From Capsulimonadales bacterium (GTDB taxonomy: Bacteria; Armatimonadota; Armatimonadia; Armatimonadales; Armatimonadaceae): DNA of 64,000 bases. Of the stretch, positions 1,181 through 26,108 are shown in pieces. Location of the stretch: NCBI GenBank assembly GCA_033762295.1, contig JANRLW010000093.1:1-64000 (forward strand). The letters run 5' to 3'. The notes beneath the pieces are model-generated. The model was not told where the DNA came from. It saw only the letters and a program-made list of their open reading frames with translations, and did not search any database. The translations under genes were made by a program, and so were the position numbers. Within the stretch, counting starts at the first letter, position 1, and each line of letters opens with the position of its first letter.

Positions 1181-2548
1181 CTATTTTCCGCCGATCGCGA
1201 CCAGATGCCCCTGCGTGCGCCAGAACAGAACCCCCGCGGAGATGGCCGGGGTCGCCATGCAGACCTCGCCCATCGGGTTCACCCCGATCACCTCGAAGGC
1301 CGGTCCGGCTTTGACGACGTAGACATCGCCCTCCTCGCTCGTAAAAAACAGCTTGCCGTCGGCGGCCACCGGCGAGGCGGTGAACCCGGTACGCCCGGTC
1401 CCCAGACGCTCCTGGTAGACCTGTTTGCCCGTCTTGGCCTCGAAGCAGGTCAGGACACCGTTATCCCGGCAGCTGTACAGATAACCGCGATAAGCCAGCG
1501 GCGTCTGCATGTACGCCCCGCCGCGCGGAATGCTCCAGGCGATATGGGTGTTGGATGTCGCGTCCCCCGTCAGGGTGATGTCGCCCTTCGCGGTCGGTCG
1601 GATCGCGTAGAGCGGGGACAGACGCCCGTGCGCGTTCGTGATAAAGATCAGCCCCTCGGCGACCAGCGGCGTCGGGACCGGGATGTCGCCGCCGCCGGTC
1701 AGACGCCACACTTCCTTGCCGGTGGCGACATCGTACGCGCCGATATGCTTCCAGCCGTTGACGATCATCTGCTTGCGCCCGCCGACCTCGACGATCGACG
1801 GCGTGCTCCAGGTCGGAACATCCTTGCGCGGCGTCCGCCAGAGTTCGCGGCCATCCTTCAGATCGAACGCGGCGACGAACCCGTTCTTCTGAATATCGCA
1901 CTGAACCAGCGCCTTGCCGTCGACCGGAATCGGCGAACTCGCAAACCCCCACTGCGCGTCCGGCACCATGAAGAACCCGGAATCCAGCACGCCGAGGCTC
2001 TTCTTCCAGCGCAGGTTGCCGTCCATATCGTAGCAGTACAGCCCTTCCGAGCCGAAGAACGCGAGGACGTTCTTGCCATCGGTCGCCATGGTCGAGTTGG
2101 CATGCGTCGCCTTGGTATGGCGCTTGACACGGGGAACCCCTCGATACGCGGTCCGCTGCCAGAGAATTTTTCCGGTTTTTTTGTTCAGGCAGTAGACGCG
2201 AAACTCATGGGACGTGTCGTCCTCAACCGGGGCGATATCGCCGTAAAGCCCCACCTTCAGTTCCGGTTTCGCCGCGCCGCTGATCGCCGTCGTCACGAAA
2301 AGGCGATCGCCCCAGACGATCGGACTGGAATGACCCAGGCCCGGAATCGCCGTTTTCCACTGAACATTTCTGCCCGCTTCAACGTCCCAGGCAGAGGCGA
2401 CCGGTGTACCGTCGGCGACCCCACTGGCGTTCGCGCCCCGAAAGGAGGGCCAGTGGTCGCCCGGTTGGGCCTCTGCGGGCGCGAGGATCGCCCCTGTGAG
2501 GAAGGCGAGCGAAGCGAGTATCGACGTGAGCGGCGGAAGTACGTTCAT
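1181..2548 (-). CDS. Secreted PQQ-binding-like beta-propeller protein (1 of 7)
   Basis: Signal peptide, WPSFRG start motif, repeated SSP...W blades; GAAAGGGA SD before ATG 2548. Confidence 0.85.
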   Translation of the reverse strand: MNVLPPLTSILASLAFLTGAILAPAEAQPGDHWPSFRGANASGVADGTPVASAWDVEAGRNVQWKTAIPGLGHSSPIVWGDRLFVTTAISGAAKPELKVGLYGDIAPVEDDTSHEFRVYCLNKKTGKILWQRTAYRGVPRVKRHTKATHANSTMATDGKNVLAFFGSEGLYCYDMDGNLRWKKSLGVLDSGFFMVPDAQWGFASSPIPVDGKALVQCDIQKNGFVAAFDLKDGRELWRTPRKDVPTWSTPSIVEVGGRKQMIVNGWKHIGAYDVATGKEVWRLTGGGDIPVPTPLVAEGLIFITNAHGRLSPLYAIRPTAKGDITLTGDATSNTHIAWSIPRGGAYMQTPLAYRGYLYSCRDNGVLTCFEAKTGKQVYQERLGTGRTGFTASPVAADGKLFFTSEEGDVYVVKAGPAFEVIGVNPMGEVCMATPAISAGVLFWRTQGHLVAIGGK

Positions 2549-2596
2549 GATCGGTGTCCCTTTCAAAATGCGCGTAAATTAACGATCGGCGGAAAC

Positions 2597-2606
2597 AAAA
2601 CGTTTT
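2597..2606. promoter_or_regulatory. Possible LacI-type operator core in the divergent promoter region
   Basis: Perfect palindrome AAAACGTTTT between divergent genes. Confidence 0.3.
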
Positions 2607-2780
2607 CGGTTTACGATATGTCAGGTGGCCGGAACCATCGCGGCTCTCCGGTGTTATCAACTTCGCCGTGGGACCGCCGATTCCTGTGCCGGAAAAACGT
2701 CGATCTCTTGCCACCGCTCCGGGGCAGGATATTTCCCGGTCCGACGAGAATGTTGACCCGGTTTTGCCGGAGGTATCATT

Positions 2781-3494
2781 ATGAATCAGCCTACATCGCG
2801 GCGCGCCGCCTTTACCCTGATCGAGCTGCTCGTCGTCATCGCCATAATCGCGATACTTGCCGCCATCCTGTTCCCGGTCTTCGCTCAGGCACGGGAAAAA
2901 GCCCGACAGACGTCCTGCCTTTCCAATAACAAGCAGTACGCCCTGGCGACGCTGATGTATCTTCAGGATTATGATGAGACCTTTCCGATGTCCGCCTATC
3001 TGAACCAGGTGTGCGTCGCAACGTTCTATCAGGTGGTCGAACCGTACGTCAAGAACCAGCAGGTCACCCGTTGCCCGAGCGAGGACAGCGCGATCCGGAT
3101 TGCGGATCTGGTCGGCTTCCCGTGCGCCGGAACCCCGCCGTTCACCAGCTACGTGGTCAATCACGCGCTATTCGTCAACGGGTTCGTCCCGGGCATCTCG
3201 GCGACGACCCTCGGCGCGGTGAACCGCTCCGCCGAGACGATCATGATCTACGACGGCAACGCCACCTTCGGCGCGGCGCCCGGACAGCAGATCCAGCTGG
3301 TACAGGCCCGGCATACGGGAACGTTCAGCGCGAGTTTCGTCGACGGACACGTCAAGGCGATTCAGGCGACCGAGACCGGCAAAGCGAATCAGTTCACGGT
3401 CGCCGGACCGGGGCGGGAACTCAAGGTATACACCATCGGCGCGAACGGTGGTTTCTATGCGGGCGGAACGGAGTGCCTCGGTATTCCGCAGTAG
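2781..3494 (+). CDS. Prepilin-type N-terminal cleavage/methylation protein, DUF1559/H-X9-DG type
   Basis: [59 protein letters not shown]. Confidence 0.9.
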
Positions 3495-3515
3495 TCCCGG
3501 AAGGAAGGTAATGGC

Positions 3516-4778
3516 ATGCAGCGTTCGTTTTCCTCTCATTCATTCCTGCGCGGTCTTCTGCCCTGTCTGACGGCGGTTCTGGTGGCGCCCGCTTCGGTCG
3601 CCGAGGACTGGCCGCAGTGGCGGGGGGTGAACCGTGATGCCCTCTCGAAGGAAAAAGGTCTTCTGAGCGCGTGGCCGGAGAGCGGTCCTCGCCTGCTCTG
3701 GGTCGGACGCAACCTCGGCGAGGGGCATTCGACCCCGTCGGTCGCGAAGGGCCGCATCTATGGCATGGGGTTGCGGGGAAGCGACGAGGTGGTCTGGGCG
3801 CTGGATGCCAGAACCGGCAAGGAACTCTGGGCCACGAAGATCGCCGACGGCATCACGCTGGAAGCCGCGCAGGGTGGATACGGCTCCCGCTCGACTCCGA
3901 CCGTCGATGGCGATCACCTCTATACTCTGGGCGTCGGCGGCGACCTGGTCTGTATGAGCGTGGCGAACGGCAAACTCCTCTGGAAAAAGAATCTGGTCCG
4001 GGATTTCAACGGCGACGTGCCGCGTTGGGGGTATAGCGAGTCGCCGCTCGTCGATGGCGAGAAGGTGGTGGTGACGCCGGGTGGCGATGCCTTCACCGTG
4101 GTCGCGCTGAACAAGAAAACCGGCGAAACGATCTGGAAGTCGCAGGTGACCGGCGGGAACGGCGCCACCTACTCGTCGCCGATCCTGGCGACGGTCGGCG
4201 GCGTTCGCCAGTATATCCAGTTCCTGACCGGCGCGGTCGTCGGCGTCGATGCGGCCAGTGGGAAGTTTCTCTGGCGGTTCGATGCTCCGGCCTGTCGCCA
4301 GGGGATCAACTGCTCGACTCCGATCTATACCGATTCCTATGTCTTCGCCGCGTCCGCCTACGGACACGGGGGCGGTCTCGCGAAATTAACCGGCAGCGGC
4401 GGCGCAACGACCGCCGAACAGGTCTACTTCACCAAGCAGATGCAAAACCATCACGGCGGAATGGTCGTGGTCGGCGACTATCTCTACGGGTTCGATAACA
4501 ACACTCTGACCTGTCTGGAGTTCAAGACCGGCAAGCTGATGTGGGCCGATCGCAGCGTCGGCAAAGGATCCGTCGCTTATGCCGACGGCAACCTGTACGT
4601 TCGGGGCGAGCAGGGGCCGGTCGCGCTGGTCGCCACCGATCCGAAAGCCTATACGGAAAAGGGCCGATTCGCTCAGCCCGAACGCAGTAACGCCCCGGCC
4701 TGGCCGCATCCCGTGATCGCCAACGGCACGCTGCTCCTGCGCGATCAGGGCAATCTGTTCTGTTACGCGATCAAGTAA
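3516..4778 (+). CDS. Secreted PQQ-binding-like beta-propeller protein (2 of 7)
   Basis: Signal peptide, DWPQWRG, WGYSESPLVDG, WPHPVIANG. Confidence 0.85.
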   Translation: MQRSFSSHSFLRGLLPCLTAVLVAPASVAEDWPQWRGVNRDALSKEKGLLSAWPESGPRLLWVGRNLGEGHSTPSVAKGRIYGMGLRGSDEVVWALDARTGKELWATKIADGITLEAAQGGYGSRSTPTVDGDHLYTLGVGGDLVCMSVANGKLLWKKNLVRDFNGDVPRWGYSESPLVDGEKVVVTPGGDAFTVVALNKKTGETIWKSQVTGGNGATYSSPILATVGGVRQYIQFLTGAVVGVDAASGKFLWRFDAPACRQGINCSTPIYTDSYVFAASAYGHGGGLAKLTGSGGATTAEQVYFTKQMQNHHGGMVVVGDYLYGFDNNTLTCLEFKTGKLMWADRSVGKGSVAYADGNLYVRGEQGPVALVATDPKAYTEKGRFAQPERSNAPAWPHPVIANGTLLLRDQGNLFCYAIK

Positions 4779-4806
4779 TCCGGTAATCCGGTAATCCGGT
4801 GATCCG
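4775..4806 (+). repeat. 8-bp tandem repeat containing the stop codon
   Basis: GTAATCCG x3 + GTGATCCG. Confidence 0.9.
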
Positions 4807-4853
4807 TTACGATCATCAGGACCATTACGACGCATAGTACAAGGAACCAGTCG

Positions 4854-6053
4854 ATGAACCGACATCTGTTCGGCGCGGCCTGTGTCGCGCTGCTGACCCT
4901 TTCCGCCGGCACGGTCGGCGCGACCGACTGGCCGCAATGGCGCGGCCCGAATCGCGACGGCATCTCGCCCGAAACGGGTCTGCCCTCCTCCTTCCCGACC
5001 GGCGGCCCGAAACGGCTCTGGTCGGTCAACGTCGGCGCGGGCTTCTCCAGCGTCAGCGTGGCCAACGGACGTCTGTTCACGATGGGGAACGACGCCAACC
5101 AGGACATCGTCTCCTGCCTCGACCCGCTGACCGGACGGGCTTTCTGGCAGTACCGTTACCCCTGCGGCAGCGGCGATTACGAAGGGCCGCGCGCCACACC
5201 CACCGTCTCCGGAAACAACGTCTACACGCTGAGCCGGGAAGGTCTGGCGCTCTGCCTGAACGTCCGGACCGGCAAGGTCGTCTGGCAGCGGAACATCGCC
5301 CGGGAAACCGGCGCGGAATCGCCGCAGTGGGGATTCGCCGGTTCGCCGCTGCTCGAAGGCAATCTGGTCATTTATAACGTCGGCGGGGGCGGGACCGCGG
5401 TCGACCGCAACACGGGCCGTATCGTCTGGCGATCGGGCGCGGGGCGGGCCGGGTACGCCTCCCCGGTCGCGTTCGTCTCCGGCGGACGGCGCGCCGTCGC
5501 GATCTTCGCGGGCAAGGGACTGGTCGCCGTCGACCCGGCCACCGGGCGACAACTGTGGCAGTACCCCTGGGACACCTCCTACGATGTCAACGCCGCCGAT
5601 CCCATCTTCTCCGGCGACAACGTCTTTATCTCGTCCAACTACGGCAAAGGGGGCGCGCTGCTCCGAATCGCCGGCGGACGACCGACGCCGGTGTGGGAAA
5701 ACCGGAGCATGAAGAACCACTTCAATTCGAGCGTTCTGACCAAAGGCGCCCTGTTCGGCAACGACGAGAATACGCTGCGCTGCGTCGATTTCGCGACCGG
5801 CGCGGAGCGATGGTCGATGCGCGGCATCGGTAAGGGAGGATTAATAGTTGCTGACGGTAAACTATTGGTCCTGACCGAACGCGGCGAACTGGTGCTCCTG
5901 AACGCCGAACCGGGCAAAATGACCGAACTCGGACGCGCCAGCGTGTTGCGCGGCACCTGCTGGACCCATCCCGTTCTTGCCAACGGCCTCCTCTACTGCC
6001 GAAGCCACGAGGGTGTCCTGGTCTGCGTCGAACTGAAGTCCAAAAGGGCATAA
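4854..6053 (+). CDS. Secreted PQQ-binding-like beta-propeller protein (3 of 7)
   Basis: Signal peptide, DWPQWRGPNRDG, GPRATP, WTHPVLANG. Confidence 0.85.
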   Translation: MNRHLFGAACVALLTLSAGTVGATDWPQWRGPNRDGISPETGLPSSFPTGGPKRLWSVNVGAGFSSVSVANGRLFTMGNDANQDIVSCLDPLTGRAFWQYRYPCGSGDYEGPRATPTVSGNNVYTLSREGLALCLNVRTGKVVWQRNIARETGAESPQWGFAGSPLLEGNLVIYNVGGGGTAVDRNTGRIVWRSGAGRAGYASPVAFVSGGRRAVAIFAGKGLVAVDPATGRQLWQYPWDTSYDVNAADPIFSGDNVFISSNYGKGGALLRIAGGRPTPVWENRSMKNHFNSSVLTKGALFGNDENTLRCVDFATGAERWSMRGIGKGGLIVADGKLLVLTERGELVLLNAEPGKMTELGRASVLRGTCWTHPVLANGLLYCRSHEGVLVCVELKSKRA

Positions 6054-6054
6054 A

Positions 6055-8427
6055 ATGGCACTGTATCGAAATCGACGCGGCCCGCAAGCACGGGCCGCTT
6101 TCCCGCAGATAGCTCCTCCGGCAGCACGGCAAGTACGGACGATCGTAACGGCCGTAACGGCGGTGGCGACGATGACGGCACTGAACGGGACCGTCGCCCC
6201 GGCTTCCGCACAGACGCCGGTACGCGGCTGGCTCAACTGGCGCGGCCCCGAACAGACCGGCGTGTCCCGCGAAACCGGCCTGCCCGACACTTGGACACCC
6301 GGCGGCGTCAACGATCTCTGGTCGATCCCGATCTCCGGCGGCGGAACGCCCGTCATCGCGAATGGCAGGGTCTTCGCGTTCGGCTACTCCGGTCAGGGCG
6401 CGGATCTGCAGGAAGTGCTGTTCTGCGCGGACGCCGAAACCGGCAAAATACTCTGGCAGCAACGGTTCAACGACTATCTCTCCGACATTACCTACGACCG
6501 GTATGCCATCGGCAGCCCGTGCGTCGACGCGGAGACGGGAAACGTCTACGTCCTTACCTCCGCCGGCGTTTTCGCCGCCTTCACTCCGGCCGGGAAGAAG
6601 CTCTGGCAACACCCGATGATGGAGTCTCTCGGTCGCCTGACCTTCACCAACGGGCGAACGGGCGGGCCGACGATCGAGGAGGATCTGGTCATCGTCCGTG
6701 GGATCACCGCCAACTGGGGCGGCGAGGGCGCGGCGATGGACCGTCTCTATGCTTTCGATAAGCGGACCGGCCAGCTCGTTTGGGGGTGCAGTCCGGGGGT
6801 CCCGCCCAAGGACAACTCCTTCGCCCGGCCGATCTTCGGTTACCGCAACGGCAAGCGCGTCTTCTACACCGGCGCGGGCGACGGCAGCCTGATTTGCGTC
6901 AACGCGCGCACCGGCGAAACCCTCTGGCGCTACCCGATCTCGGCGGGCGGGATGAACGCCACCGTCCTCCTCTACAAGGACACGGTGATCGGTATCCATG
7001 CCGATGAAAACCTGGACTCCTCCGATGCCGGGCGCATGACCGCGGTGCGTGTCAATTCCGAACCGAAAGCCGCCGAAACCGGACCACCTCTCCTGGACAG
7101 ATCGGCCGAAGCCTGGCGCAACGATCTGGGCGTCATCTCCAGTTCGCCGGTTCTCGACGGGAATCGCATCTATCAGGTGGACAAAACAGGGCATATCTGT
7201 GGGGTCAACGCCGACACCGGGGCGGTGATCTTCCGGTATAAGCTCGCGCCGGACCAGTTGCACGCCTCGCCGCTACTCGCCGACGGAAAGCTGTACGTGC
7301 CGATGCAGAACGGCCTGTTTTACATCCTCAGGCCAGAGGCGAACGGCGTACGGGAACTGGCGAAGGTACAACTGGCGGGCCGCTGTATCGGCGCGCCCTC
7401 CGCCTGGAACGGCAAGGTCTACGTTCACACCACCGAAAAACTGTACTGCTTCGGGAAGAAAGGCAACAACCCCGGTCTGCCGAAGCCGAACGCGCTGCCC
7501 GCCGGACGAAAGCCGGCGGTCGGCCCGACCGCCGCCCTGCAGATCCTGCCGTCCGAGGTGACGTTGCGGCCGGGCGAAAAGGCGGTCTTCACCGTGCGCG
7601 GAATCGATGCCAACGGCTTCGTCACCCGACAGTTCGACAGCGCGAACGTACGGTGGGCCAAATACATCCCGCCGACCGCGCGTGTCCGCTCGGAGATGGA
7701 TGCCTCGTTCAATACCCGCGGCGAACTGACCGTCGCCGAGGGAGCGAAACCGTCGGCCGGAGCGTTCGAAGCGACCGTGGACGGCTTCAAGGGGACGATT
7801 CGCGGACGCGTCCTTCCGAAACTGCCGCTCACCGAGGACTTCGAATCCTTCCAGCCGACCGAGTCCCTGCCGTCCGCGCCGGAAGAGAAGTTCGCCTACC
7901 CGCCATTGCCATGGATCGGTGCGCGGTTCAAGTTCGATATTCGCGAACTCGACGGCAACAAGGTCTTCGCCAAGACCCTCGATAACATCTTCTTCCAGCG
8001 CGCGACCGTCTTTATCGGGCATCCGGACGAGAAAAATTACACCTTCGAGGCGGATGTCATGGCGGACGGCAACCGGCGCACCCTCGGCACGGTCGGCGTC
8101 ATCAACCAGCGTTATTACATCGTTCTGACCGGGAACGCGCAGGAACTGGAAGTGAACTCCAACCAGGAGCGGATCAAGGCGACCGTTCCTTTCAAATGGC
8201 AGCCCAAGACCTGGTACCGGATGAAGACGCGGGTGGACGTCGCTCCGGACGGTTCGGGCATCGTACGGGCGAAAGCCTGGAAGAAGGGCGACCCGGAACC
8301 GGCGGCATGGACGATCGAAGTGCCGCATCGTCAGGCGCATACGAGCGGCTCGCCCGGCCTGTTCGGATTCTCGCCGCAAAGTCTGTTCAAAGTCTATATC
8401 GATAACCTTTCGATCACGCCGAATTAG
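6055..8427 (+). CDS. PQQ-like beta-propeller protein with additional C-terminal beta-rich domains (4 of 7); start uncertain
   Basis: WLNWRGP, propeller blades to about aa 465, then ~300 aa beta-rich extension ending YIDNLSITPN; starts 1 nt after the upstream stop. Confidence 0.8.
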   Translation: MALYRNRRGPQARAAFPQIAPPAARQVRTIVTAVTAVATMTALNGTVAPASAQTPVRGWLNWRGPEQTGVSRETGLPDTWTPGGVNDLWSIPISGGGTPVIANGRVFAFGYSGQGADLQEVLFCADAETGKILWQQRFNDYLSDITYDRYAIGSPCVDAETGNVYVLTSAGVFAAFTPAGKKLWQHPMMESLGRLTFTNGRTGGPTIEEDLVIVRGITANWGGEGAAMDRLYAFDKRTGQLVWGCSPGVPPKDNSFARPIFGYRNGKRVFYTGAGDGSLICVNARTGETLWRYPISAGGMNATVLLYKDTVIGIHADENLDSSDAGRMTAVRVNSEPKAAETGPPLLDRSAEAWRNDLGVISSSPVLDGNRIYQVDKTGHICGVNADTGAVIFRYKLAPDQLHASPLLADGKLYVPMQNGLFYILRPEANGVRELAKVQLAGRCIGAPSAWNGKVYVHTTEKLYCFGKKGNNPGLPKPNALPAGRKPAVGPTAALQILPSEVTLRPGEKAVFTVRGIDANGFVTRQFDSANVRWAKYIPPTARVRSEMDASFNTRGELTVAEGAKPSAGAFEATVDGFKGTIRGRVLPKLPLTEDFESFQPTESLPSAPEEKFAYPPLPWIGARFKFDIRELDGNKVFAKTLDNIFFQRATVFIGHPDEKNYTFEADVMADGNRRTLGTVGVINQRYYIVLTGNAQELEVNSNQERIKATVPFKWQPKTWYRMKTRVDVAPDGSGIVRAKAWKKGDPEPAAWTIEVPHRQAHTSGSPGLFGFSPQSLFKVYIDNLSITPN

Positions 8428-8439
8428 AGATCAAACCTT

Positions 8440-9968: not shown

Positions 9969-9975
9969 TCCATGC

Positions 9976-10010
9976 GGAAGCGGACCCGGTGTTAACCCGG
10001 GTCCGCTTCC
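9976..10010 (+). other. Intra-operon 14-bp stem-loop without U tract
   Basis: GGAAGCGGACCCGG-tgttaac-CCGGGTCCGCTTCC. Confidence 0.7.
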
Positions 10011-10030
10011 CGGCATAAAAAGGGACGAGG

Positions 10031-10306
10031 ATGCGATACCTGCTTGCGGCGCTGGTCGCCGTGGTGATCCTGCTGCATCAGGATATCTGGAACTGGACCG
10101 ATAAGACGCTCGTCTTCGGGTTTCTCCCGATCGGACTGGCGTACCACGGGGGGTATTCGGTGATGGCGGTCGTTACGATGGCGATTCTGGTGCGCTTCCT
10201 CTGGCCGGCCCACCTGGACGACGAGACGATCACCGAACCGGCCGGATCGACCGGAGCGACCGAACCGCGCGCCGCGCACGCGTCACAGGAGGATTCCGCC
10301 CGATGA
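10031..10306 (+). CDS. DUF3311-like small membrane partner of a sodium:solute symporter
   Basis: Two TM segments, LHQDIWNW...FGFLPIGLAYH; ATGA overlap with the symporter. Confidence 0.8.
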   Translation: MRYLLAALVAVVILLHQDIWNWTDKTLVFGFLPIGLAYHGGYSVMAVVTMAILVRFLWPAHLDDETITEPAGSTGATEPRAAHASQEDSAR

Positions 10307-12024
10307 TTCCGGCCATCATCGTCTTTTGCTATCTCGCCATCGTCCTGTACATCGGCATCTTCGCCTTTCGCAAGGGGGCGTCGTCCGGGGAGGACTTTTT
10401 CCTCGCCAATCGCCGTCTCGGCCCGATGGTCTTTCTCCTGTCGCTGTTCGGAACGAACATGACCGCGGTCGCCATTCTGGGCAGTTCCGGGTTCGCGTAT
10501 CAACGGGGTATCGGCGTCTATGGCCTGATGGCCTCGTCGTCCGGCATCATCATTCCGCTGACGCTGTTCTTCATCGGGACGCGGCTCTGGGCGCTCGGAA
10601 AGCGGTTCGGGCATATGACGCAGGTGCAGTACCTGCGCGACCGCTGGGAGATGCGCGGAATCGGGACCTTTATCTTCGCCCTGACCGCCGTCATGCTCGT
10701 TCCCTACATCATCATCGGCGTGATGGGCGGTGGGGAGACGCTGGAGACGATCAGCGGCGGAGCAGTGCCTTACGAGGTGGGCGGCGCGGTCGTTGCCATC
10801 GTCGTCATGAGCTACGTCTTCTTCGGCGGGATGCGCGGGACCGCCTGGGTCAACACCTTCCAGACCGTCCTGTTCCTCTGCTTCGGCGCGATCGCCTTTA
10901 CGCTGATCGCTCAGAGCCTCGGCGGCTTTCCCGGCCTGATGAACCAGCTGGCCGCCTCGCCGAAAGCCTACCTCCTGTCGCGGGAGCGCATTCCGCCGGA
11001 GGAGTTTCTGAGCTATATGTTCATCCCGCTGTCCTCGATCATGTTCCCGCATATAGCGATCATGTGTATGACGGCGGAAAAGATCACCCATTTCAAGCGT
11101 ACGGTCATCTTCTATCCGCTCTGTATCATGTTTATCTGGCTGCCGTCCGTCTACCTGGGCGTGGTGGCGGCGACCCAGTATCCGAACCTGACGCCGGGTC
11201 AGGCGAACGACGTCATCATCCGTCTGTTGACCGACAACACCAATACGCTGGTTTCGGGAATTCTGGGAGCCGGGATCATGGCCTGCGTCATGGCCTCGGA
11301 CAGTCAGATCCTGGCGCTCAGCACCATGTTCACCGAGGACCTTTTCTCCTACTACGGCGGTCGGGCGAAGTACGGTCCCAAAGCGGAGGTCTGGGCGGGC
11401 CGCGCCTTCATCGTCGCGATCAGTGTCGTGGCCTACGGGATCGCGCTGCTGTTGAAGGACCGGGCCAATATCTTCGACCTGGCGATTCGCTTCGCGTTCT
11501 CCGGGTTCGCCGCCCTCGCCCCGGTGATGCTGGCGGCCCTTTTCTGGAAACGAAGCACGAAGTGGGGAGCGCTGGCCGCCTCGATCTGGGTACTGTTCGG
11601 TGTGCTGGGCATCTGGTACCTGACGGCGATTTCGGACCCGATCGCGCCGAGACCGCCCGCACCGCGCCCTGCCGGAACCGCCCCGCCCGGACGTGGCCCG
11701 TCAGGAACCGCCCTGACGGGACCGGCGACCGGACAGACCGGACCGGGCAGTCCGACCGGACCGACCGCCTCGGCGGGCGGGCCACCGACAGGTGGCGCGG
11801 GACGACCCGCCGGGGGTGGGCCGCCGCGCCCGCCGAGCGTGCGTATCTTCCCGCAACTGGGCGACCTGTTCCTGCGCGGGCCGATCAACGTCACCATCTT
11901 CGGGTTCCTGCCGGTGATGCCGATGGTGCTCGGATCGGCGTTGCTGATGATCGTCGTCTCCCTGCTCACCCGGCCGCCGAGCCAGGCGACGCTGGATCGA
12001 TATTTCCCGCCGAAGAACGATTAA
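10303..12024 (+). CDS. Sodium:solute symporter (SSS/PutP-PanF family)
   Basis: EDFFLANRRLGP, YVFFGGMRGTAWVNTFQ, many TM helices. Confidence 0.9.
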   Translation: MIPAIIVFCYLAIVLYIGIFAFRKGASSGEDFFLANRRLGPMVFLLSLFGTNMTAVAILGSSGFAYQRGIGVYGLMASSSGIIIPLTLFFIGTRLWALGKRFGHMTQVQYLRDRWEMRGIGTFIFALTAVMLVPYIIIGVMGGGETLETISGGAVPYEVGGAVVAIVVMSYVFFGGMRGTAWVNTFQTVLFLCFGAIAFTLIAQSLGGFPGLMNQLAASPKAYLLSRERIPPEEFLSYMFIPLSSIMFPHIAIMCMTAEKITHFKRTVIFYPLCIMFIWLPSVYLGVVAATQYPNLTPGQANDVIIRLLTDNTNTLVSGILGAGIMACVMASDSQILALSTMFTEDLFSYYGGRAKYGPKAEVWAGRAFIVAISVVAYGIALLLKDRANIFDLAIRFAFSGFAALAPVMLAALFWKRSTKWGALAASIWVLFGVLGIWYLTAISDPIAPRPPAPRPAGTAPPGRGPSGTALTGPATGQTGPGSPTGPTASAGGPPTGGAGRPAGGGPPRPPSVRIFPQLGDLFLRGPINVTIFGFLPVMPMVLGSALLMIVVSLLTRPPSQATLDRYFPPKND

Positions 12025-12079
12025 CTCTGCGCAAGAAAAAGGAAGCAAAACGGCGGGAATCGCTGTTGAAAGGGGTGCT

Positions 12080-13174
12080 ATGAACCTCAATACACCTGCA
12101 CCGGAAGCCGTTCGGGACGCCGCGGCCGCGCTTGACGCCCATGTTCGCGAAATCATCGCCTGGCACTTCTCCCCGGAAACGGGCTGTCCGTTCTGGCTCG
12201 AGTGGGCCGAACGCACCGGGTTCGATGCCGTTGCCGAAGTCACCTCCGCCGCCGACCTGCTGAAGTTCCCGCACTTTCAGGACGAATGGCTGCGCGACGA
12301 ACCGAACGAACGCTGGATTCCGAAACCGTATACCGGACGCCCGTTCCTGATCTTTGAGACCGGCGGAACCACCGGGATGCCCAAACAGCGCATCGGCTGG
12401 GAGGATCATCTGCGCGACTACGAGGAGTTTTCCGACTATCTGGACGCGCAGTACCCCGACGCATTCCCGCGCGGCGGCAACTGGCTGATGCTCGGTCCGA
12501 CCGGCCCGCGCCGGTTGCGCCTCGCCATCGAGCACCTGGCGCACGTGCGCGGCGGCTCCTGCTACCACGTCGACCTCGATCCCCGCTGGGTGAAACGACT
12601 GATCGCCAGCAAGGATTTCGAAATCGCCAAACGGTACAAGACGCACGTCGTCGAGCAGGGCGCGACCATTTTGAAAAACCGCAAGGTCAGCTGCCTCTTT
12701 ACCACACCCCTGCTGCTGGAAAGCCTGGACGAACATATCAACGTCCCGGACGCCGGAATCCGGGGCGTCTTCTGCGGCGGAACGCAGATGACGCCGCAGA
12801 CGGTCCGCTTCCTGACCGAGGAGGTGCTGGACTACCGGGCGGCGTTCGTTCCCACCTACGGCAACACGCTGATGGGGCTGGCCTGCTCCCGCCCGCTGAC
12901 ACCCGAGGACAACTGGAGCATCACCTACCATGCGCCGCAGCCGCGGGCCGTTCTCCGGGTCGTGGACCCCGGCGACACGACCAAACAGGTCGATCATGGA
13001 GCCTGGGGGCGCGTCGAACTGACCACGCTGACGAAGGAGTTTTTCATGCCGCGCTTCCTGGAACGGGACGAAGCGATCCGGCGCGAGCCATGGGGTTGTT
13101 TCGCCTGGGACGGCGTCGGCGAGGTGCGCCCGTTCGGCGCGCTGGAAACCAAGGCGATCGAAGGGGTCTATTAG
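12080..13174 (+). CDS. EhpF/GriC-like short adenylate-forming enzyme (aryl-carboxylate activating subunit family)
   Basis: WHFSPETGCPFWL, ETGGTTGMPK P-loop, DLDPRWVK, PTYGNT, ERD, terminal IEGVY, all matching my recollection of EhpF; only 364 aa. Confidence 0.75.
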   Translation: MNLNTPAPEAVRDAAAALDAHVREIIAWHFSPETGCPFWLEWAERTGFDAVAEVTSAADLLKFPHFQDEWLRDEPNERWIPKPYTGRPFLIFETGGTTGMPKQRIGWEDHLRDYEEFSDYLDAQYPDAFPRGGNWLMLGPTGPRRLRLAIEHLAHVRGGSCYHVDLDPRWVKRLIASKDFEIAKRYKTHVVEQGATILKNRKVSCLFTTPLLLESLDEHINVPDAGIRGVFCGGTQMTPQTVRFLTEEVLDYRAAFVPTYGNTLMGLACSRPLTPEDNWSITYHAPQPRAVLRVVDPGDTTKQVDHGAWGRVELTTLTKEFFMPRFLERDEAIRREPWGCFAWDGVGEVRPFGALETKAIEGVY

Positions 13175-13189
13175 AAGGGATCTATCCGA

Positions 13190-14611
13190 ATGTCCGCGCC
13201 TTATATCCCGGTCCTGCGCAAGGGCCAACCGTACGACAGCATGGACCGCAACGAACTGAAGAGCGTTCGCGGCGGCGAAACCGTCGGGACCGTCAGCATG
13301 ACGAACGCCGCGATGATCCGGCGTGACCTGCGAAAATCCGCCCGGGACGCGTTCCGGGAGTTCACCGTCGCCCGGATGCTGGAAATCAGCGCGTCGGCGG
13401 GACGCCTGTTTCTGGAGGAGACGCTGCCCCTCGGCGGCGGGGGGACGCAGACGCCGCAACAGTATATCGAAGCGCTCTCCGGGACCAGCGGTCTGCCGCA
13501 CTCGCTCATTCGGCGCAATATGGCCAAGGTCCACCAGGTCTTCACCGAGATGCCGACCATCCTGAAGGGGCTGACACGCGGCATGGACCCCGGAATCCTG
13601 GACACCGGGTACGGGGAGCAGGCCGGGGTGCCGGTCAGCTACTTCGCGGTGACGAACGCGCTGGGCGTCGTTCTTCCGAGCAACTCGCCGGGGGTAAACT
13701 CGCTGTGGATGCCGGCCATCGCGCTGAAGGTCCCGGTGGTGCTGAAACCGGGCCGCGAGGAGCCGTGGACACCGTTCCGGATCGTGCAGGCGTTCATTGC
13801 GGCGGGCTGTCCGGCGGAGGCGTTCTCGTTCTATCCCACCGACCACGAGGGTAGCGCGGCCATCATGGAAGCCTGCGGACGCGCCCTGATCTTCGGAGAC
13901 CAGGGCACGGTCGAGCGGTACGCCGGGAATCCGGGCGTCCAGGTGCATGGGCCGGGCTGGAGCAAAGTCATTATCGGCGAGGACTGTATCGAGGAGTGGC
14001 CGGAATATATCGATTTGATCGCCGATTCGATCGCCGAGAACGGCGGACGCAGCTGTATCAATGCCTCGGCGGTCGTGGTTCCGAAGTACGCCGATCGGAT
14101 CGCCGACGCTCTGGCGCGGAAACTGGCCGAAATCCGACCGCGTTCGGCGACCGACGAGCAGGCGACGCTGGCCGGGTTCGCCAATCCGAAGATGGCGGAG
14201 GCCATGGACGCCGCCGTTACCGAGGGGTTGAAGACCCCCGGCGCGGAGGAGGTGACCGCGAAGTATCGCGGCGCGGACCGACTGGTGACGCAGGACGGCA
14301 GCACCTATCTGTTGCCGACGGTCATCCGCTGTGCGTCGTTCGAGCATCCGCTGGCGAACCGCGAGTATCTCTTCCCGTATGCCAGCGTCGTCGAGACGCC
14401 GCAGACACAGGTCACCGAGAAGATCGGCCCCTCGCTGGTCGTAACGGCGTTGACCCGGGACGAGCGATTCATCCGGGAACTGCTCGACTCGCCGCACATC
14501 GAGCGGCTGAACATCGGCCCCCTGCCGACCTCGCGGGTCCGGTGGGACCAGCCGCACGAGGGAAATCTGTTCGAATTTCTATATCGCCGCCGTTCCATTC
14601 AGCGCGCCTGA
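13190..14611 (+). CDS. Aldehyde dehydrogenase-fold protein, probable acyl-adenylate/acyl reductase (EhpG/GriD/LuxC-like)
   Basis: PSNSP, LKPG, catalytic Cys in ENGGRSCINAS, EYLFP; HGPGWSK replaces the canonical ELGGK. Confidence 0.75.
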   Translation: MSAPYIPVLRKGQPYDSMDRNELKSVRGGETVGTVSMTNAAMIRRDLRKSARDAFREFTVARMLEISASAGRLFLEETLPLGGGGTQTPQQYIEALSGTSGLPHSLIRRNMAKVHQVFTEMPTILKGLTRGMDPGILDTGYGEQAGVPVSYFAVTNALGVVLPSNSPGVNSLWMPAIALKVPVVLKPGREEPWTPFRIVQAFIAAGCPAEAFSFYPTDHEGSAAIMEACGRALIFGDQGTVERYAGNPGVQVHGPGWSKVIIGEDCIEEWPEYIDLIADSIAENGGRSCINASAVVVPKYADRIADALARKLAEIRPRSATDEQATLAGFANPKMAEAMDAAVTEGLKTPGAEEVTAKYRGADRLVTQDGSTYLLPTVIRCASFEHPLANREYLFPYASVVETPQTQVTEKIGPSLVVTALTRDERFIRELLDSPHIERLNIGPLPTSRVRWDQPHEGNLFEFLYRRRSIQRA

Positions 14612-14644
14612 GGGCGGGCGAAACAACCGATAAAGGCAAAATCC

Positions 14645-15706
14645 ATGTACGACACCAGAGCCTATTCCGCCGACGCCGCGACCTCTCCGCTGGCTCCGAG
14701 GACGATTCCGCGCCGGGATCCGACCGAACGCGACGTGCGCATCGAGATCCTTTTCTGCGGTATCTGCCACTCCGACCTGCACACGGTCCGCAATGAGTGG
14801 AGCAGCATCATGCCGACGGTCTATCCGTGCGTTCCCGGTCATGAGATCATCGGGCGCGTGACCGAGGTCGGATCGTATGTCACCCGGTTCGCGCCCGGCG
14901 ATCTGGTCGGAGTCGGCTGCCTGGTGGATTCGGATGGCACCTGCCCGAACTGTCAGGCCGGCTTCGAGCAGTTCTGTCCGAACGCCGTGTTCACCTACAA
15001 CGGACCCGACCGGCATGGGACCGCTCCGGTCACCTACGGCGGATACTCCGATACGATCGTGGTGGACGAGGGGTTTGTTCTGCGCGTTCCGACCAACCTG
15101 GACCTGGCCGGAGCCGCCCCGCTCCTGTGCGCCGGGATCACCACCTACTCCCCGCTGCGTCGGGCGGGTGTCAAGGCGGGATCGAAGGTCGGCATCGTCG
15201 GTCTCGGCGGACTGGGCCACATGGGAGTCAAATTCGCAAGCGCGATGGGGGCGCATGTCGTGGTATTCACGACGTCGCCGCGCAAGATCGAGGACGCCCT
15301 GCGCCTCGGCGCGGACGAAGTCCTTCTCTCGACGGATGCCAACGCCTTGCGGGCGCACGCCGGGACTTTCGATTTTATCCTCGATGCCGTTTCTGCGGAG
15401 CACGATCTCAACACCTACCTGCAGCTTCTCGGTCGCGGCGGTAACCTGACCCTGGTCGGCGCGCCGGAAAAGCCCATGCCGGTGTCGTCCTTCGCCCTGC
15501 TGTTCGGAAACCACTCGCTCTCCGGATCGCTGATCGGCGGTATCCCCGAAACACAGGAGATGCTCGACTTCTGCGGCGAGCGGAATATCACCGCCGATGT
15601 CGAGGTCATCGCGATGCAGCAGGTCAACGAGGCGTACGAGCGAATGCTCCGGTCGGACGTAAAATACCGTTTCTCGATCGATATGGCGTCGCTGGCGTCG
15701 GAATAG
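14645..15706 (+). CDS. Zn-dependent NAD(P)H aldehyde reductase/alcohol dehydrogenase (CAD/YahK-like)
   Basis: CGICHSDLH, PGHEIIG, APLLCAGITTYSPL, GLGGLGHMG, DVKYRFSID. Confidence 0.92.
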   Translation: MYDTRAYSADAATSPLAPRTIPRRDPTERDVRIEILFCGICHSDLHTVRNEWSSIMPTVYPCVPGHEIIGRVTEVGSYVTRFAPGDLVGVGCLVDSDGTCPNCQAGFEQFCPNAVFTYNGPDRHGTAPVTYGGYSDTIVVDEGFVLRVPTNLDLAGAAPLLCAGITTYSPLRRAGVKAGSKVGIVGLGGLGHMGVKFASAMGAHVVVFTTSPRKIEDALRLGADEVLLSTDANALRAHAGTFDFILDAVSAEHDLNTYLQLLGRGGNLTLVGAPEKPMPVSSFALLFGNHSLSGSLIGGIPETQEMLDFCGERNITADVEVIAMQQVNEAYERMLRSDVKYRFSIDMASLASE

Positions 15707-15716
15707 GTCGGAATAG
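15697..15716 (+). repeat. 10-bp tandem duplication ending in the stop codon
   Basis: GTCGGAATAG x2. Confidence 0.85.
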
Positions 15717-15720
15717 CCGG

Positions 15721-16899
15721 ATGTCCGTCGCGGAAATCGACTGGCAGCCGCGAACCCGCCTGATCTTCGGCGCGGGGCGCCTGGTTCGTCTGGGCGACCT
15801 GGCGCGGGAGATCGGCGGAAAACGCGCCCTGCTCGTCACCGACCCCGGAGTTCGGGCCGCCGGTTACGCCGATACCGCCGGCGAACGGCTGGAGACCGCC
15901 GGGGTTGTCGTGTCGGTGTTCGACGAGGTGCCGGAGAACCCGACGTCGGCGACCGTCGAACGGTGCGCGGAAGCGGCCCGTGCGTTCGCCCCGGACCTGC
16001 TGATCGGGCTGGGCGGCGGCAGTGCGATGGATACGGCCAGGGGCGGGAACTTCCTCTACACCAACGGCGGGGCGATGCCGGACTATCGCGGATACGGGAA
16101 GGCCGAAAAGCCGATGCTGCCGCTGATCGCCGTTCCGACGACCGCCGGCACGGGCAGCGAGATGCAGTCGTACGCGGTCATCTCCGACGCTGAAACGCAT
16201 CGGAAGATGGCCTGTGGCGACCCGAAGGCGGCGGCCCGCGCCGCTCTGCTCGACCCGGAACTGACGCTTACCTGCCCGCGCCGGGTGACCGCCTGCGCCG
16301 GGATCGATGCGATCGCGCATGCGGTGGAAACGGCCGTCACGACGAAGGGAACCGCACTGTCGCGTCTGTTCTCACGCGAGGCGTTTCGTCTGCTCGCGGC
16401 GAACTTTCGGCGCGTGCTCGACGCGCCCGACGATCTCGACGCCCGTGGCGCGATGCTGCTCGGCGCGGCGTACGCCGGAAGCGCGATCGAGAACAGCATG
16501 CTCGGAGCGGCGCATTCCGCCGCCAATCCCCTGACCGCCCGGTCGAAGATCGTCCACGGACAGGCGGTCGGAATGATGTTGCCGTACGTCGTCGCGTTCA
16601 ACGCCTCGGAACCGGAAATCGCCGCCGCCTATGAAACGTGGGTTCGGCAGAGCGGACCGCCGATCGGAGAACCCGCCGTGGACTCGCTGATCGAATTCCT
16701 GCGCGGTTGCCTGATGGCCGCCGGTTTTCCGTCCACTCTGCGCGAGGCGGGGGTCACGGAGGAAGCGATTCCTCTCCTGGCGAAAGAGGCGGCGGAACAA
16801 TGGACCGTGCAGTTCAATCCCCGCCCGATCGGGGAGGAGGACTTCGTCGCCCTTTACCGGGATGCCCTGCACGGCGTCCCACCAGCAATTCGGAGGTAA
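15721..16899 (+). CDS. Iron-containing alcohol dehydrogenase
   Basis: GLGGGSAMD, PTTAGTGSE, DAIAHAVE, AHSAA, VHGQA. Confidence 0.92.
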   Translation: MSVAEIDWQPRTRLIFGAGRLVRLGDLAREIGGKRALLVTDPGVRAAGYADTAGERLETAGVVVSVFDEVPENPTSATVERCAEAARAFAPDLLIGLGGGSAMDTARGGNFLYTNGGAMPDYRGYGKAEKPMLPLIAVPTTAGTGSEMQSYAVISDAETHRKMACGDPKAAARAALLDPELTLTCPRRVTACAGIDAIAHAVETAVTTKGTALSRLFSREAFRLLAANFRRVLDAPDDLDARGAMLLGAAYAGSAIENSMLGAAHSAANPLTARSKIVHGQAVGMMLPYVVAFNASEPEIAAAYETWVRQSGPPIGEPAVDSLIEFLRGCLMAAGFPSTLREAGVTEEAIPLLAKEAAEQWTVQFNPRPIGEEDFVALYRDALHGVPPAIRR

Positions 16900-16907
16900 G
16901 GAAGCCC

Positions 16908-18254
16908 ATGCAGTACGATCTGTCTCGATGGTTGGTCGCCGCGCTTCTGATCGGTATTCCGGCGGCGCGCAGTGGGGCGCAGGACTGGCCGAACTGGCGG
17001 GGAGCGCAGTACAACGGCTCGTCGGCGGCAAAGAACCTTCCGGTGAAGTTCTCCCCCACGGAAAACGTGAAGTGGGCGGCGGACCTGCCCGGTCCGTCCG
17101 CCGCGACTCCCGTGATTTCGGGCGGGAATGTCTTCGTTTCCAGCGTCGACCTGAAAAACCGGACGCTCGTCGCGCTTTGCCTGGATCGGGCCACCGGAAA
17201 GGTGAAGTGGCAGCACTCGATCGGCAGCGGCTATCTGCCCGGCGGTGAGGGTAACGCCATTCAGTTGGATGAAAAGAGCAACTATGCTTCGCCGTCCCCG
17301 GTCACCGATGGCCGGCGCGTCGTGTTCTTTTTCGGAAACGGGGACCTCGCCGTGTTCGATCCGCTGGGGAAAAAACTGTGGCAGCGGAATCTGCAGAAGG
17401 AGTTCGGGGATTTCGCGTTCCAGTGGACGTTCGCCAGTAGCCCGGTCCTCTACGGCGGAAAACTGTACGTGCAGATTCTTCAGCGGAACCGTCCGGCAGG
17501 ATCGCGCGGCAAGGCGGACGCGCCCTCGTATCTGCTGGCGCTGTCTCCGGAGACCGGACAGGAACTGTGGCGCAGCGAGCGTCCGACCCCGGCGATCATG
17601 GAATCGCGCGAGGCGTACTCCACCCCGATCCCGCATGAGTACAACGGGCGGAAGGAACTGGTGATTGCCGGCGGCGATTTTGTCACCGGGCACGATCCGA
17701 ATACGGGCCGGGAACTATGGCGTTGGGGCACGTGGAACGAGGGGCATCGTGAAGCGTGGTGGCGTCTGGTGCCGTCGCCGGTCGTGGGGGAGGGGGTCGT
17801 GCTGGTTTGTGCGCCGAAACGCGCCCCGGTCTACGCGGCGAAACTGGGCGGCAGCGGGGTGCTCGGAGCGGATGCCCTAGCCTGGAAGAGCGAGGATCGC
17901 AGTTCGGTGACGAGCGATGTGCCGACCCCGCTCTACTACCAGGGGAAATTCTTTATTCTCAGCGACCTGCGCCGAACGCTGTCCTGCGTCGATCCGAAAA
18001 CCGGCGCGGTGGTGTGGTCGGTGCCGACGCCGGGGCGCGAACCCTGCTGGGCCTCCCCGACCGGCGCGGATGGTAAACTCTATCTCATGACCCTGGGCGG
18101 GACGGTGATCGTGGTTGACGCCGCGACCGGCAAGACGCTGGCCGAAAACCCGATGGATGAACCGGGGTCCGAGATCCGTTCGACCGTCGCCGTCGCGCAT
18201 GGCGCACTGTTCATTCGGACCTCGAACAAACTTTACTGCATCGCAAAAGGATAG
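16908..18254 (+). CDS. Secreted PQQ-binding-like beta-propeller protein (6 of 7)
   Basis: ATG 16908 after AAGGAAG; signal peptide, DWPNWRG, YASPSPVTDG. Confidence 0.85.
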   Translation: MQYDLSRWLVAALLIGIPAARSGAQDWPNWRGAQYNGSSAAKNLPVKFSPTENVKWAADLPGPSAATPVISGGNVFVSSVDLKNRTLVALCLDRATGKVKWQHSIGSGYLPGGEGNAIQLDEKSNYASPSPVTDGRRVVFFFGNGDLAVFDPLGKKLWQRNLQKEFGDFAFQWTFASSPVLYGGKLYVQILQRNRPAGSRGKADAPSYLLALSPETGQELWRSERPTPAIMESREAYSTPIPHEYNGRKELVIAGGDFVTGHDPNTGRELWRWGTWNEGHREAWWRLVPSPVVGEGVVLVCAPKRAPVYAAKLGGSGVLGADALAWKSEDRSSVTSDVPTPLYYQGKFFILSDLRRTLSCVDPKTGAVVWSVPTPGREPCWASPTGADGKLYLMTLGGTVIVVDAATGKTLAENPMDEPGSEIRSTVAVAHGALFIRTSNKLYCIAKG

Positions 18255-18262
18255 CACACATA

Positions 18263-19429
18263 ATGACGAGACAGCGAGGGTGCCGGTTACCGAAATGCGG
18301 CCTGTGGGCGATCATCGGCATCGCGGCGTTGCCCGGCGGGTGGCCGGTGTTCGCCCAGTCCGCGCCGACCCTCCCGGTTCCCTCGCCGGCCGCTCCGACC
18401 CCGGGCGCACGGTCGCTGCGGGTCGCTCCGGGCAAACTTCCGGATAAATTACGCCGGGCATGGCGGTTCCGAACGCGCGGACCGATCACCTCCTCGCCGG
18501 TCGCCGAAGCGGGACGGGTGTACGTCGGTTCCGAGGACGGTTTCGTCTATGCCGTCCGTCTGACCGACGGACGCAAGGTCTGGTCGTTCAAAACCGGCGG
18601 ATCGGTCGAGGCGACGCCCCACCTGACCGGCGAACTCGTCGTCATCGGCTCCTCCGACGGCAACCTCTATGCGCTCGACAGGGTCACCGGAAAACTGCGC
18701 TGGAAGTTCGCCACCGAGGGGAAGATTCTGGGCGGAGCGAACTCCGCGCCGCGCGCCGACGGCAAGGGACGAACGATCGCGGTCGGCAGTTACGATAACC
18801 GGGTCTACGGGATCGATGCCCGTACCGGACGCAAGGTCTGGGCCTACGAGACCGATAACTACGTGAACGGGATGCCCGCCATCTCGGGAAATCGGGTCAT
18901 CATCGGAGGGTGCGACGGAACTCTCCATGTCATCGACCTGAACACCGGAAAACGGCTGCTCGGTCTGCCGATCAGTGACTATATCGCCGGGTCCACCACG
19001 GTCGCCGGAACGCGCGCCTATGTGGGGCATTACGGGAACGCGGTGGTCTGCGCGGATGTCGTCTCCGGCGAAACCGTCTGGACCTATCGCGATCGTGGTT
19101 TTCCCTACTTTTCCACCCCGGCGGTGACCGGCGACCGGGTCATTCTCGGCGGGCGGGATCGGCGCGTCCATGCCATCCGGCGGGACGATGGCAAGGGACT
19201 CTGGCTCTTCCGGACCGGCGGCAAGGTGGATAGTTCCCCGACCGTCTGCGACGGCAAGGTGGTGATCGGTTCCGAGGACGGCAACCTGTACCTGCTCGGT
19301 CTGGACGACGGCAAGGAGCGTTGGCGATATCAGGTCGGCAGTCCGGTCATCAGTTCACCGTACGTGATCGACGGAACCGTTCTGGTCGGGGCGGACGACG
19401 GCTACCTTTACGCCTTTCGGGGGCGTTAA
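18263..19429 (+). CDS. BamB/AfsK-type PQQ-like beta-propeller protein (7 of 7)
   Basis: Regular W.F.T...SSP....G.VY.GS.DG.LYA repeats. Confidence 0.85.
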   Translation: MTRQRGCRLPKCGLWAIIGIAALPGGWPVFAQSAPTLPVPSPAAPTPGARSLRVAPGKLPDKLRRAWRFRTRGPITSSPVAEAGRVYVGSEDGFVYAVRLTDGRKVWSFKTGGSVEATPHLTGELVVIGSSDGNLYALDRVTGKLRWKFATEGKILGGANSAPRADGKGRTIAVGSYDNRVYGIDARTGRKVWAYETDNYVNGMPAISGNRVIIGGCDGTLHVIDLNTGKRLLGLPISDYIAGSTTVAGTRAYVGHYGNAVVCADVVSGETVWTYRDRGFPYFSTPAVTGDRVILGGRDRRVHAIRRDDGKGLWLFRTGGKVDSSPTVCDGKVVIGSEDGNLYLLGLDDGKERWRYQVGSPVISSPYVIDGTVLVGADDGYLYAFRGR

Positions 19430-19455
19430 TCCCGATTAATCGGGATTAATCTCGA
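19426..19455. repeat. 24-bp perfect palindrome and 10-bp tandem repeat joining two convergent stop codons
   Basis: TTAATCCCGA TTAATCGGGA TTAATCTCGA; 19426-19449 is self-complementary. Confidence 0.85.
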
Positions 19456-22196: not shown

Positions 22197-22239
22197 GTTC
22201 CGTTCTCCCTGAAAAATCCGAAGGAAGGGATTCAGGGAC

Positions 22240-26088: not shown

Positions 26089-26108
26089 TACGAAGAGAAC
26101 GAGACGTT

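Follow-up and report, generated by a model that had tools for sequence, protein, structure and literature searches.

The stretch of DNA analysed here, called the window below, comprises 64,000 nt from a Capsulimonadales bacterium (assembly GCA_033762295.1, contig JANRLW010000093.1, positions 1 to 64,000). It contains an operon in which an importer, an EhpF/GriC-type adenylating enzyme, an aldehyde dehydrogenase (ALDH)-fold protein and an iron-containing alcohol dehydrogenase (Fe-ADH) are encoded among putatively exported pyrroloquinoline quinone (PQQ)-like propellers, named P1 to P7. Comparison across genomes revealed a nested presence pattern, new here, which links the EhpF-like/ALDH pair, the propellers and a GT4 glycosyltransferase. 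We read the operon, at slightly less than an even chance, as the uptake-and-reduction stage and the main clients of an undescribed small-molecule pathway, with this genome as a salvaging user and not a de novo producer; a glycosylated end product appears to be needed by the whole exported propeller family. The first-pass annotation had placed a self-contained pathway in this locus, and this was not sustained, as the GT4/export module was located on a different contig and neither of two upstream modules was found in the genome.

The pattern was established with two sets of genomes, whose counts are raw, related genomes not being independent and many being incomplete. The first consisted of 80 genomes chosen by hand with their EhpF status known at the time of choice (42 EhpF-positive and 38 EhpF-negative), with thresholds chosen by us, and the second of 151 genomes of the phylum, evenly drawn by the tool. 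In the first set the ALDH-fold gene was present in 42/42 EhpF-positive and 0/38 EhpF-negative genomes, P5 in 40 and 3, GT4 in 40 and 5, and P3-family propellers in 42 and 5, respectively, the five last genomes being the same that carried GT4. Genes for a radical SAM protein (26 vs. 0) and a UbiC-like protein (23 vs. 0) followed the same division, and 15 EhpF-positive genomes, all of them Armatimonadota and this one included, gave no match to either. In the second set GT4 was found in 31 genomes and the P3 family in 35; both were present in 31 genomes, neither in 116, propellers only in four and GT4 only in none. The propeller family tracks GT4 even more tightly than the EhpF/ALDH pairing in this nested pattern. 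Around 19 GT4 loci of EhpF-negative Armatimonadota, the fetched flank contained a propeller in 12, NapH- or Tat-ferredoxin-like genes in five, and polyprenyl synthase, prenyltransferase or SHC-like genes in seven, and the YCGxCxRD motif, hallmark of this GT4, was kept in EhpF-negative genomes. A conserved block was also observed beside GT4 in such genomes (L172:333-9586, L173:3219-15346 and L132:195-9346), encoding a propeller, an NHL propeller, a Tat-type 4Fe-4S protein, a NapH/MauN-like protein, another propeller and a NuoE-F fusion. A minimal locus (L131:8331-16204, genome G025) encodes a propeller, GT4, a pilin, a propeller and a PPDK_N/PEP-utiliser, in a genome without match to EhpF, ALDH, P5 or polyprenyl synthase.

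The operon is real and widely conserved. The order P4-P5-DUF3311-SSS-EhpF-like-ALDH-Fe-ADH, where SSS is the sodium:solute symporter, recurs in Armatimonadota, Verrucomicrobiota and Planctomycetota; P7 belongs to the same core, and one Omnitrophota record has the first five genes of this order. The survey of homologues of the EhpF-like gene (12080..13174, + strand), proposed at first as a check, upheld its linkage to propellers, SSS, ALDH and Fe-ADH. Among the best 80 of at least 592 confirmed EhpF-like loci, counted within the fetched flanks, P5 was present in 56, P4 in 50, ALDH in 44, SSS in 37, DUF3311 in 31 and Fe-ADH in 30, and where 8 kb or more was available on either side (33 loci) the counts were 26 for P5, 25 for P4, 19 for ALDH, 16 for SSS and 14 for Fe-ADH. 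This linkage is not due to chance. In 16 fetched loci an MFS transporter stands in for SSS, its best score, a weak one, being that of an aromatic acid/H+ symporter (74 bits vs. a cut-off of 419). In other genomes P7 directly precedes the GT4-ABC-permease genes or the radical SAM gene. The Fe-ADH gene (15721..16899, +; PF00465) is a core gene, whereas the second alcohol dehydrogenase that had been assigned to the pathway, a Zn-dependent, Ahr-like one (Zn-ADH; 14645..15706, +), was found in 0/13 and 0/80 related loci and was rejected as a member of the system, being a local insertion; in some relatives unrelated ORFs occupy its slot.

The EhpF-like gene occurs as one copy per genome and is patchy, with matches in 19 of 41 relatives and 12 strong ones in the 151 genomes of the phylum. 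In Planctomycetota, 11 strong and three distant matches were obtained among 51 genomes, and prevalence was low in an even draw of Verrucomicrobiota (2/51, including the centre). Close homologues of the locus carry Armatimonadota names. In the window's family six genomes had none of the tested parts, and genomes of the same genera have the core.

Import of a carboxylic acid followed by its reduction to an alcohol, already suggested in the first-pass annotation, is supported by homology and synteny. The DUF3311 protein (10031..10306, +; PF11755 above cut-off), the small membrane partner of the symporter, and the symporter itself (10303..12024, +; PF00474, E 2.9e-43) would import the acid. A DUF3311 gene sits beside that of the monocarboxylate permease MctP of Sinorhizobium fredii in the available text of PMC9100948; the pair is alike here, but with 54.7 bits against the MctP cut-off of 625 the substrate is not transferable. 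No named subfamily cut-off was reached by the symporter (PutP 120, PanF 106 and MctP 55 bits). Its C-terminal part contains a Pro/Gly-rich low-complexity insert of variable length (window 11650-11850).

Residues 13-364 of the EhpF-like enzyme align to residues 13-366 of EhpF (PDB 3l2k), that is, over the whole length (E 4e-46), which confirmed its initial classification. It is a short ANL enzyme without the C-terminal subdomain, ends at EGVY and contains the adenylation motifs ETGGTTGMPK at 93 (ETGGTTGxPK), YGNTL and ERD at 328, residues E328-R329-D330 being invariant in 41 sequences; it would form an acyl-adenylate. The gene 15 bp downstream (13190..14611, +) encodes a distant ALDH, with generic ALDHs as PDB matches, that is predicted to be an acyl reductase. 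Compared with KauB, it retains the catalytic Cys and has His in place of the general-base Glu, and both residues (Cys289 and His253) are invariant in 44 aligned sequences. An ALDH without the general-base Glu is less suited to hydrolysis than to acyl transfer or reduction. The protein would take the acyl group on Cys289 and reduce it to the aldehyde, from which Fe-ADH would make the alcohol. Distant EhpF homologues fused to a class-III aminotransferase (P0175) or to a Zn-ADH (P0230) would fit an aldehyde product. We consider the acid-to-alcohol chemistry quite probable. In a quick, midpoint-rooted tree of sampled homologues, built without EhpF or GriC (22 rows and one unplaced protein), the EhpF-like enzymes of the cassette grouped tightly (SH-aLRT 94) and seem to be a separate, slowly evolving clade among these homologues. 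The EhpF/GriC reductase clade is primary-metabolism-like and comprises at least 8,000 90% clusters, which may include distant relatives.

Two characterised pairs, EhpF/EhpG of D-alanylgriseoluteic acid synthesis in Pantoea agglomerans (PDB 3l2k and 3hgu) and GriC/GriD of grixazone synthesis in Streptomyces griseus, are likewise made up of a truncated ANL enzyme, with EGVY at its end, and the product of an ALDH-fold gene that comes after it, the gene order being given in PMC11278526. In the grixazone pair, GriC activates 3-amino-4-hydroxybenzoic acid (3,4-AHBA) as the acyl-AMP, from which GriD generates the aldehyde by reduction (PMC10179220). By its sequence features the pair of the window would work in the same way. 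Unlike them, it is found without a phenazine or 3,4-AHBA core and is tied to an importer, Fe-ADH, GT4, an exporter and propellers. Homology to EhpF, together with the halogenase and exporter of other genomes, could be taken to indicate a phenazine- or grixazone-like antibiotic cluster, an explanation that we regard as highly improbable. The first-pass annotation had noted that the window holds no phenazine or grixazone core genes, and no phenazine core genes were found either in the window or among the conserved neighbours. GriH-type DHQS-II (PF01959) had no match in this genome, which is 94% complete, with the control matched in 3/14. The search of the genome for PhzA/B gave no match and the control genomes gave none either. 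In addition, retention without the synthesis genes would make little sense for an antibiotic. A grixazone cluster was rejected on the result for GriH-type DHQS-II, and nothing points to a phenazine cluster.

The nature of the acid was approached through other genomes, in some lineages of which the operon continues with P7 and genes for a HemN-like radical SAM protein, a UbiC-like protein, a flavin halogenase, GT4 and a 4HBT thioesterase, and then for a small membrane protein, a PaaK-like ligase, an ABC ATPase and an FtsX-type permease. The five aryl genes (UbiC-like, radical SAM, halogenase, thioesterase and CoA ligase) form an operon of their own in two genera of the window's family. Neither these genes nor the terpenoid genes (polyprenyl synthase and SHC-like cyclase) have an orthologue in this genome, and both modules were found only in system-bearing genomes; those that add the aryl genes are here called producers. 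The UbiC-like protein stands alone and has the fold of DUF98, chorismate lyase and UTRA (Foldseek TM 0.66 with 2nwi and 0.55 with UbiC, 1g81), with PLG and GR motifs aligned with those of chorismate lyase. Its hhalign match to E. coli UbiC was collinear and weak (E 0.005, probability 7%), and 0/9 members matched Pfam Chor_lyase or DUF98. The flavoprotein contains the WxWxIP motif in 5/5 sequences (WFWYIP), which we take to be the hallmark of flavin halogenases. Because producers add the chorismate-lyase-fold protein, the HemN-like radical SAM protein, the flavin halogenase, the 4HBT thioesterase and the PaaK-like ligase, the acid is most likely a ring-tailored compound of the hydroxybenzoate type, an identification that may be right or wrong with equal chance.

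A biosynthetic role is indicated by the chorismate-lyase-fold, radical SAM, halogenase and prenyl genes, which count against a role in catabolism or detoxification, in which the propellers would free aromatic acids from environmental polymers and the cell would import and reduce or conjugate them. Such a role agrees with the weak score of the MFS substitute as an aromatic acid symporter and with the aminotransferase and Zn-ADH fusions of distant EhpF homologues. No ring-cleavage genes were found among the conserved neighbours, however, and the EhpF-like gene is single-copy and slowly evolving, so that we hold this role to be quite unlikely.

The DUF116-polyprenyl synthase gene of the terpenoid module was present, in small samples, in 5/5 EhpF-positive/UbiC-positive genomes, 0/5 EhpF-positive/UbiC-negative, 0/5 system-negative and 3/5 EhpF-negative/GT-positive ones. 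The idea that this module is an alternative to the EhpF route was rejected, because all five genomes of the first class carry both. The polyprenyl/SHC-like module of the tested producers suggests that the product may also have an isoprenoid part. In one genome, G229, most modules lie in one stretch of about 50 kb with the radical SAM, thioesterase, halogenase-like, terpenoid, P4-P5-importer-EhpF and ALDH-Fe-ADH-P7-GT4 genes. The terpenoid module (L189:7041-16640 and L190:3025-11429) contains further genes, for a class-V aminotransferase (cysteine-desulfurase-like), a GcvH-like protein, a CobW-type GTPase, a radical SAM protein and a 4Fe-4S protein, which hints at sulfur or metal insertion. The SHC-like gene clusters with GT4 and propellers in other genomes, unlike in this one, where no SHC-like cyclase was found, and we liken it, without placement on the published tree, to an SHC-like clade to which the available text of PMC7306690 and PMC12324236 assigns no product or function. 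That text makes no mention of the propellers, GT4 or EhpF. No published description of the cluster was found in the literature searched, which covers few subscription journals.

This genome carries a pilin-GT4-small membrane protein-ABC ATPase-permease module on contig C23 (C23:29365-36243; locus L128:9366-16244). GT4, the small membrane protein (without Pfam match), the ABC ATPase and the permease (FtsX-type, 1112 aa) are 53-75% identical to the producers' genes; the Atlas names for GT4 are generic only, and the ATPase has its highest score as a LolD-like protein. Where C23 ends and the window's contig starts, the two overlap by 159 bases, 127 of them identical (80%), inside a kelch gene with FN3 repeats that was found only at those two contig ends (window 1-1119). 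In the window it appears as the 3' part of a kelch/galactose-oxidase-like gene (4..1119, +). The overlap suggests that the assembly broke at tandem copies or at variants between strains. The GT4/export locus and the operon are contiguous in G012, a member of the window's family; from this contiguity and the overlap, the C23 module probably lies a few kb to the left of the window, the join being unproven. The acceptor of GT4 would be the alcohol, free or linked to a lipid, and the glycosylated product would leave the cytoplasm by way of the small membrane protein and the FtsX-type ABC transporter.

A GT4 and an FtsX-type exporter also take part in heterocyst glycolipid synthesis, a parallel for the main rival explanation, namely that the pathway builds an envelope glycolipid or meroterpenoid which the propellers, as non-catalytic carriers or scaffolds like BamB and YxaL, handle after export. 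The LolD-like ATPase and the co-occurrence of polyprenyl synthase and SHC-like cyclase in the tested producers favour it. On the other hand, importer and reductase are retained by genomes that have neither upstream module, a finding easier to reconcile with salvage of a scarce compound than with a lipid made in bulk, and the NapH- or Tat-ferredoxin-like genes flanking 5/19 EhpF-negative loci also count against it. Further evidence came from the propellers themselves.

The window encodes seven PQQ_2 propellers, as first annotated, all of them matching PF13360 and having a hydrophobic N-terminal stretch (12-residue Kyte-Doolittle values of 1.8-2.9 vs. 0.8-1.5 in four enzymes), with best local identities of 21-37% between the full-length ones. 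The annotation had to be corrected for P5 (8440..9968, +), a core gene broken in the assembly by a frameshift near 9555. An intact relative matches window 8518-9561 and 9552-9956 in two frames, and P5 was in frame in 61/61 relatives where both halves matched; the frameshift could be a real lesion or an assembly error. The model of the intact relative is an 8-bladed propeller (pLDDT 91.9), whose top structural matches were YxaL (Z 35.4), a designed propeller and BamB (Z 34.7), Rv3035 being matched as well. BamB, YxaL and Rv3035 are its best matches at Z 30-35, and P7 (18263..19429, +), an ACSF4/YxaL-type propeller, passes the Pfam cut-off for the propeller domain of ACSF4 (AASDH) (PF13570, 263 bits vs. 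133). Unlike them, the window propellers have a metabolic context and an invariant His cluster and remain below the BamB equivalog cut-off (at most 177 bits vs. 285), and P7 is not fused to an adenylation domain.

Over its whole length P5 can also be aligned with PQQ alcohol dehydrogenases (Z 28.6) and tetrathionate hydrolase. Those enzymes (PedH, XoxF, type I alcohol dehydrogenase and tetrathionate hydrolase) are likewise exported 8-bladed propellers, aligned at Z 27-29, but identity is at most 19% and the window propellers lie far below the family cut-off (at most 82 bits vs. 480 for TIGR03075). No window propeller has a vicinal Cys-Cys, presumably the motif of PQQ-dependent quinoproteins, and CC is present in 4/55 and 4/58 aligned rows. 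The pqqC profile gave no match in the genome, and none in the control. In 58 P5 sequences H193, H219, H254, H349 and H421 were invariant, as were D112, E243, E327, D346, E348, R381 and E438, the five His and many acidic residues being kept in sequences from different phyla (50-84% identity). Judging by their position between the strands, most of these residues would face one side of the propeller, and the set suits a putative binding or catalytic site. The latter weighs against the envelope-lipid explanation, which the top matches to YxaL and BamB and the missing vicinal Cys-Cys support; altogether that explanation is possible and rather doubtful.

The end-to-end alignment with PQQ alcohol dehydrogenases would also suit a redox shuttle, for which the fungal aryl-alcohol redox cycle is a model. 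Here the cytoplasm would reduce the aryl acid to the alcohol and export it, the periplasmic propellers would oxidise it and the symporter would re-import the acid. Producers also keep the importer, and importer and reductase are tightly linked to P4/P5, as a shuttle would need, but it explains neither the EhpF-negative genomes nor the fact that the distribution of the propellers is followed more closely by GT4 than by the reductase. We consider it unlikely.

P4 (6055..8427, +), a core gene with invariant polar residues, encodes a propeller with a conserved C-terminal region without Pfam match, for which an Ig/LamG-like assignment is a lead only, unconfirmed (Atlas 0.89, below 0.9). Structure and multimer prediction, also proposed at first, gave for the propellers a weakly supported P4-P5 pair, with a complex score of 0.58 vs. 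0.00 for the best control, runs agreeing in at least 70% of contacts and partner pLDDT of at least 89. The mark used is reached by 116/157 solved complexes and 2/215 mismatches, and at 0.60 or less by 18/157 and both mismatches. Per-family alignments of 7-27 sequences each revealed no residue set common to all propeller subfamilies, which share little beyond an N-terminal WxxWRG motif and structural Trp/Gly. Their polar motifs differ by subfamily, which would fit different substrates or partners. P3-family propellers number from one to at least 15 copies per genome. Other close paralogues of this genome are located at C24:11101-12369, C18:4887-6194 and C88:8439-9809, two of the three with a prepilin-type gene just upstream.

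The first-pass annotation had offered two options, a carboxylate captured outside the cell and imported, or a cofactor or ligand made for the propellers, and the second has now better comparative support. Pathways for needed small molecules often lose their early synthesis and keep uptake and late steps; this general pattern is seen here, and hence we see the window as the import and reduction stage with its clients. The exported propellers, P4 and P5 probably as a pair, would bind the product as ligand or cofactor. More tentatively, the WxxWRG PQQ-like propellers found in Planctomycetota, Verrucomicrobiota and Armatimonadota, for which BamB-like is the usual label, might be exported enzymes with a new cofactor. 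This would be a hydroxybenzyl compound, ring-tailored and glycosylated, to which a cyclic isoprenoid made by the SHC-like cyclase may be attached. It is no less speculative that producers would make this cofactor, genomes like this one would salvage its acid precursor, and P4-P5 with the His cluster would be the loading or core enzyme.

Several facts weigh against the salvage pathway as we read it. The strongest against its simple version is the lack of an EhpF gene in 19 of the 31 GT4-positive genomes of the 151, so that an aryl alcohol cannot be the only route to the GT4 acceptor unless it is imported. The GT4 of those 19 is mostly a more distant subtype (32-41% identity in 18/19), and it may be that the product contains the aryl alcohol in certain lineages only, its universal core being something else. 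Four genomes have propellers and no GT4 match. With the subfamilies sharing so little, one common binding site is not established. The fold search cannot separate chorismate lyase from the UTRA ligand-binding domain. The frameshift of P5 could mean that the unit is decaying or that the assembly is wrong, and the symporter scores higher as PutP and PanF than as MctP, none of them near the cut-off. Finally, activity, substrate and product are predicted from genome sequences.

Regarding the layout of the locus, the first description of a tightly packed run on the + strand (2781-19429) with a divergent propeller gene was correct, the intergenic gaps being -4 to 75 bp and the G+C content at third codon positions (GC3) 0.79-0.85. 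The divergent gene encodes the exported P1 (1181..2548, -; PF13360 E 3.6e-25), found in the same position in relatives G002, G010, G012 and G073 with 62-73% identity. The first gene of the operon (2781..3494, +) encodes a prepilin-type N-methyl/DUF1559 protein, of a family common in the genome (136 tblastn matches), with an orthologue in the same place in Armatimonadota relatives (56-78% identity). It is followed by the exported propellers P2 (3516..4778, +), with a conserved QNHHGG motif, and P3 (4854..6053, +), query for the family profile; the exported P6 (16908..18254, +) had its start set at ATG 16908. No Rfam family was matched in the window or in the C23 locus, and promoter- and terminator-like counts were those of shuffled expectation, without excess. 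Convergent with the end of the operon, a 931-aa protein with a YncE/lactonase-type propeller and a phosphoesterase domain is encoded at 19446-22241 (-). Further on (23605-27518) lie a DUF1549/DUF1553 planctomycete-cytochrome gene and a second gene after it, which looks to us like DUF1501; similar genes are found near several related loci.

Bacteria that abound in soil and water can carry 15 or more of these propellers each, and the propellers fit into no characterised family. Through the nested pattern, three groups that had stood as orphans, the propeller family, the EhpF/GriC reductase clade and the SHC-like cyclase, are joined in one testable pathway. The pattern also predicts producers and salvagers, and hence cross-feeding between them.

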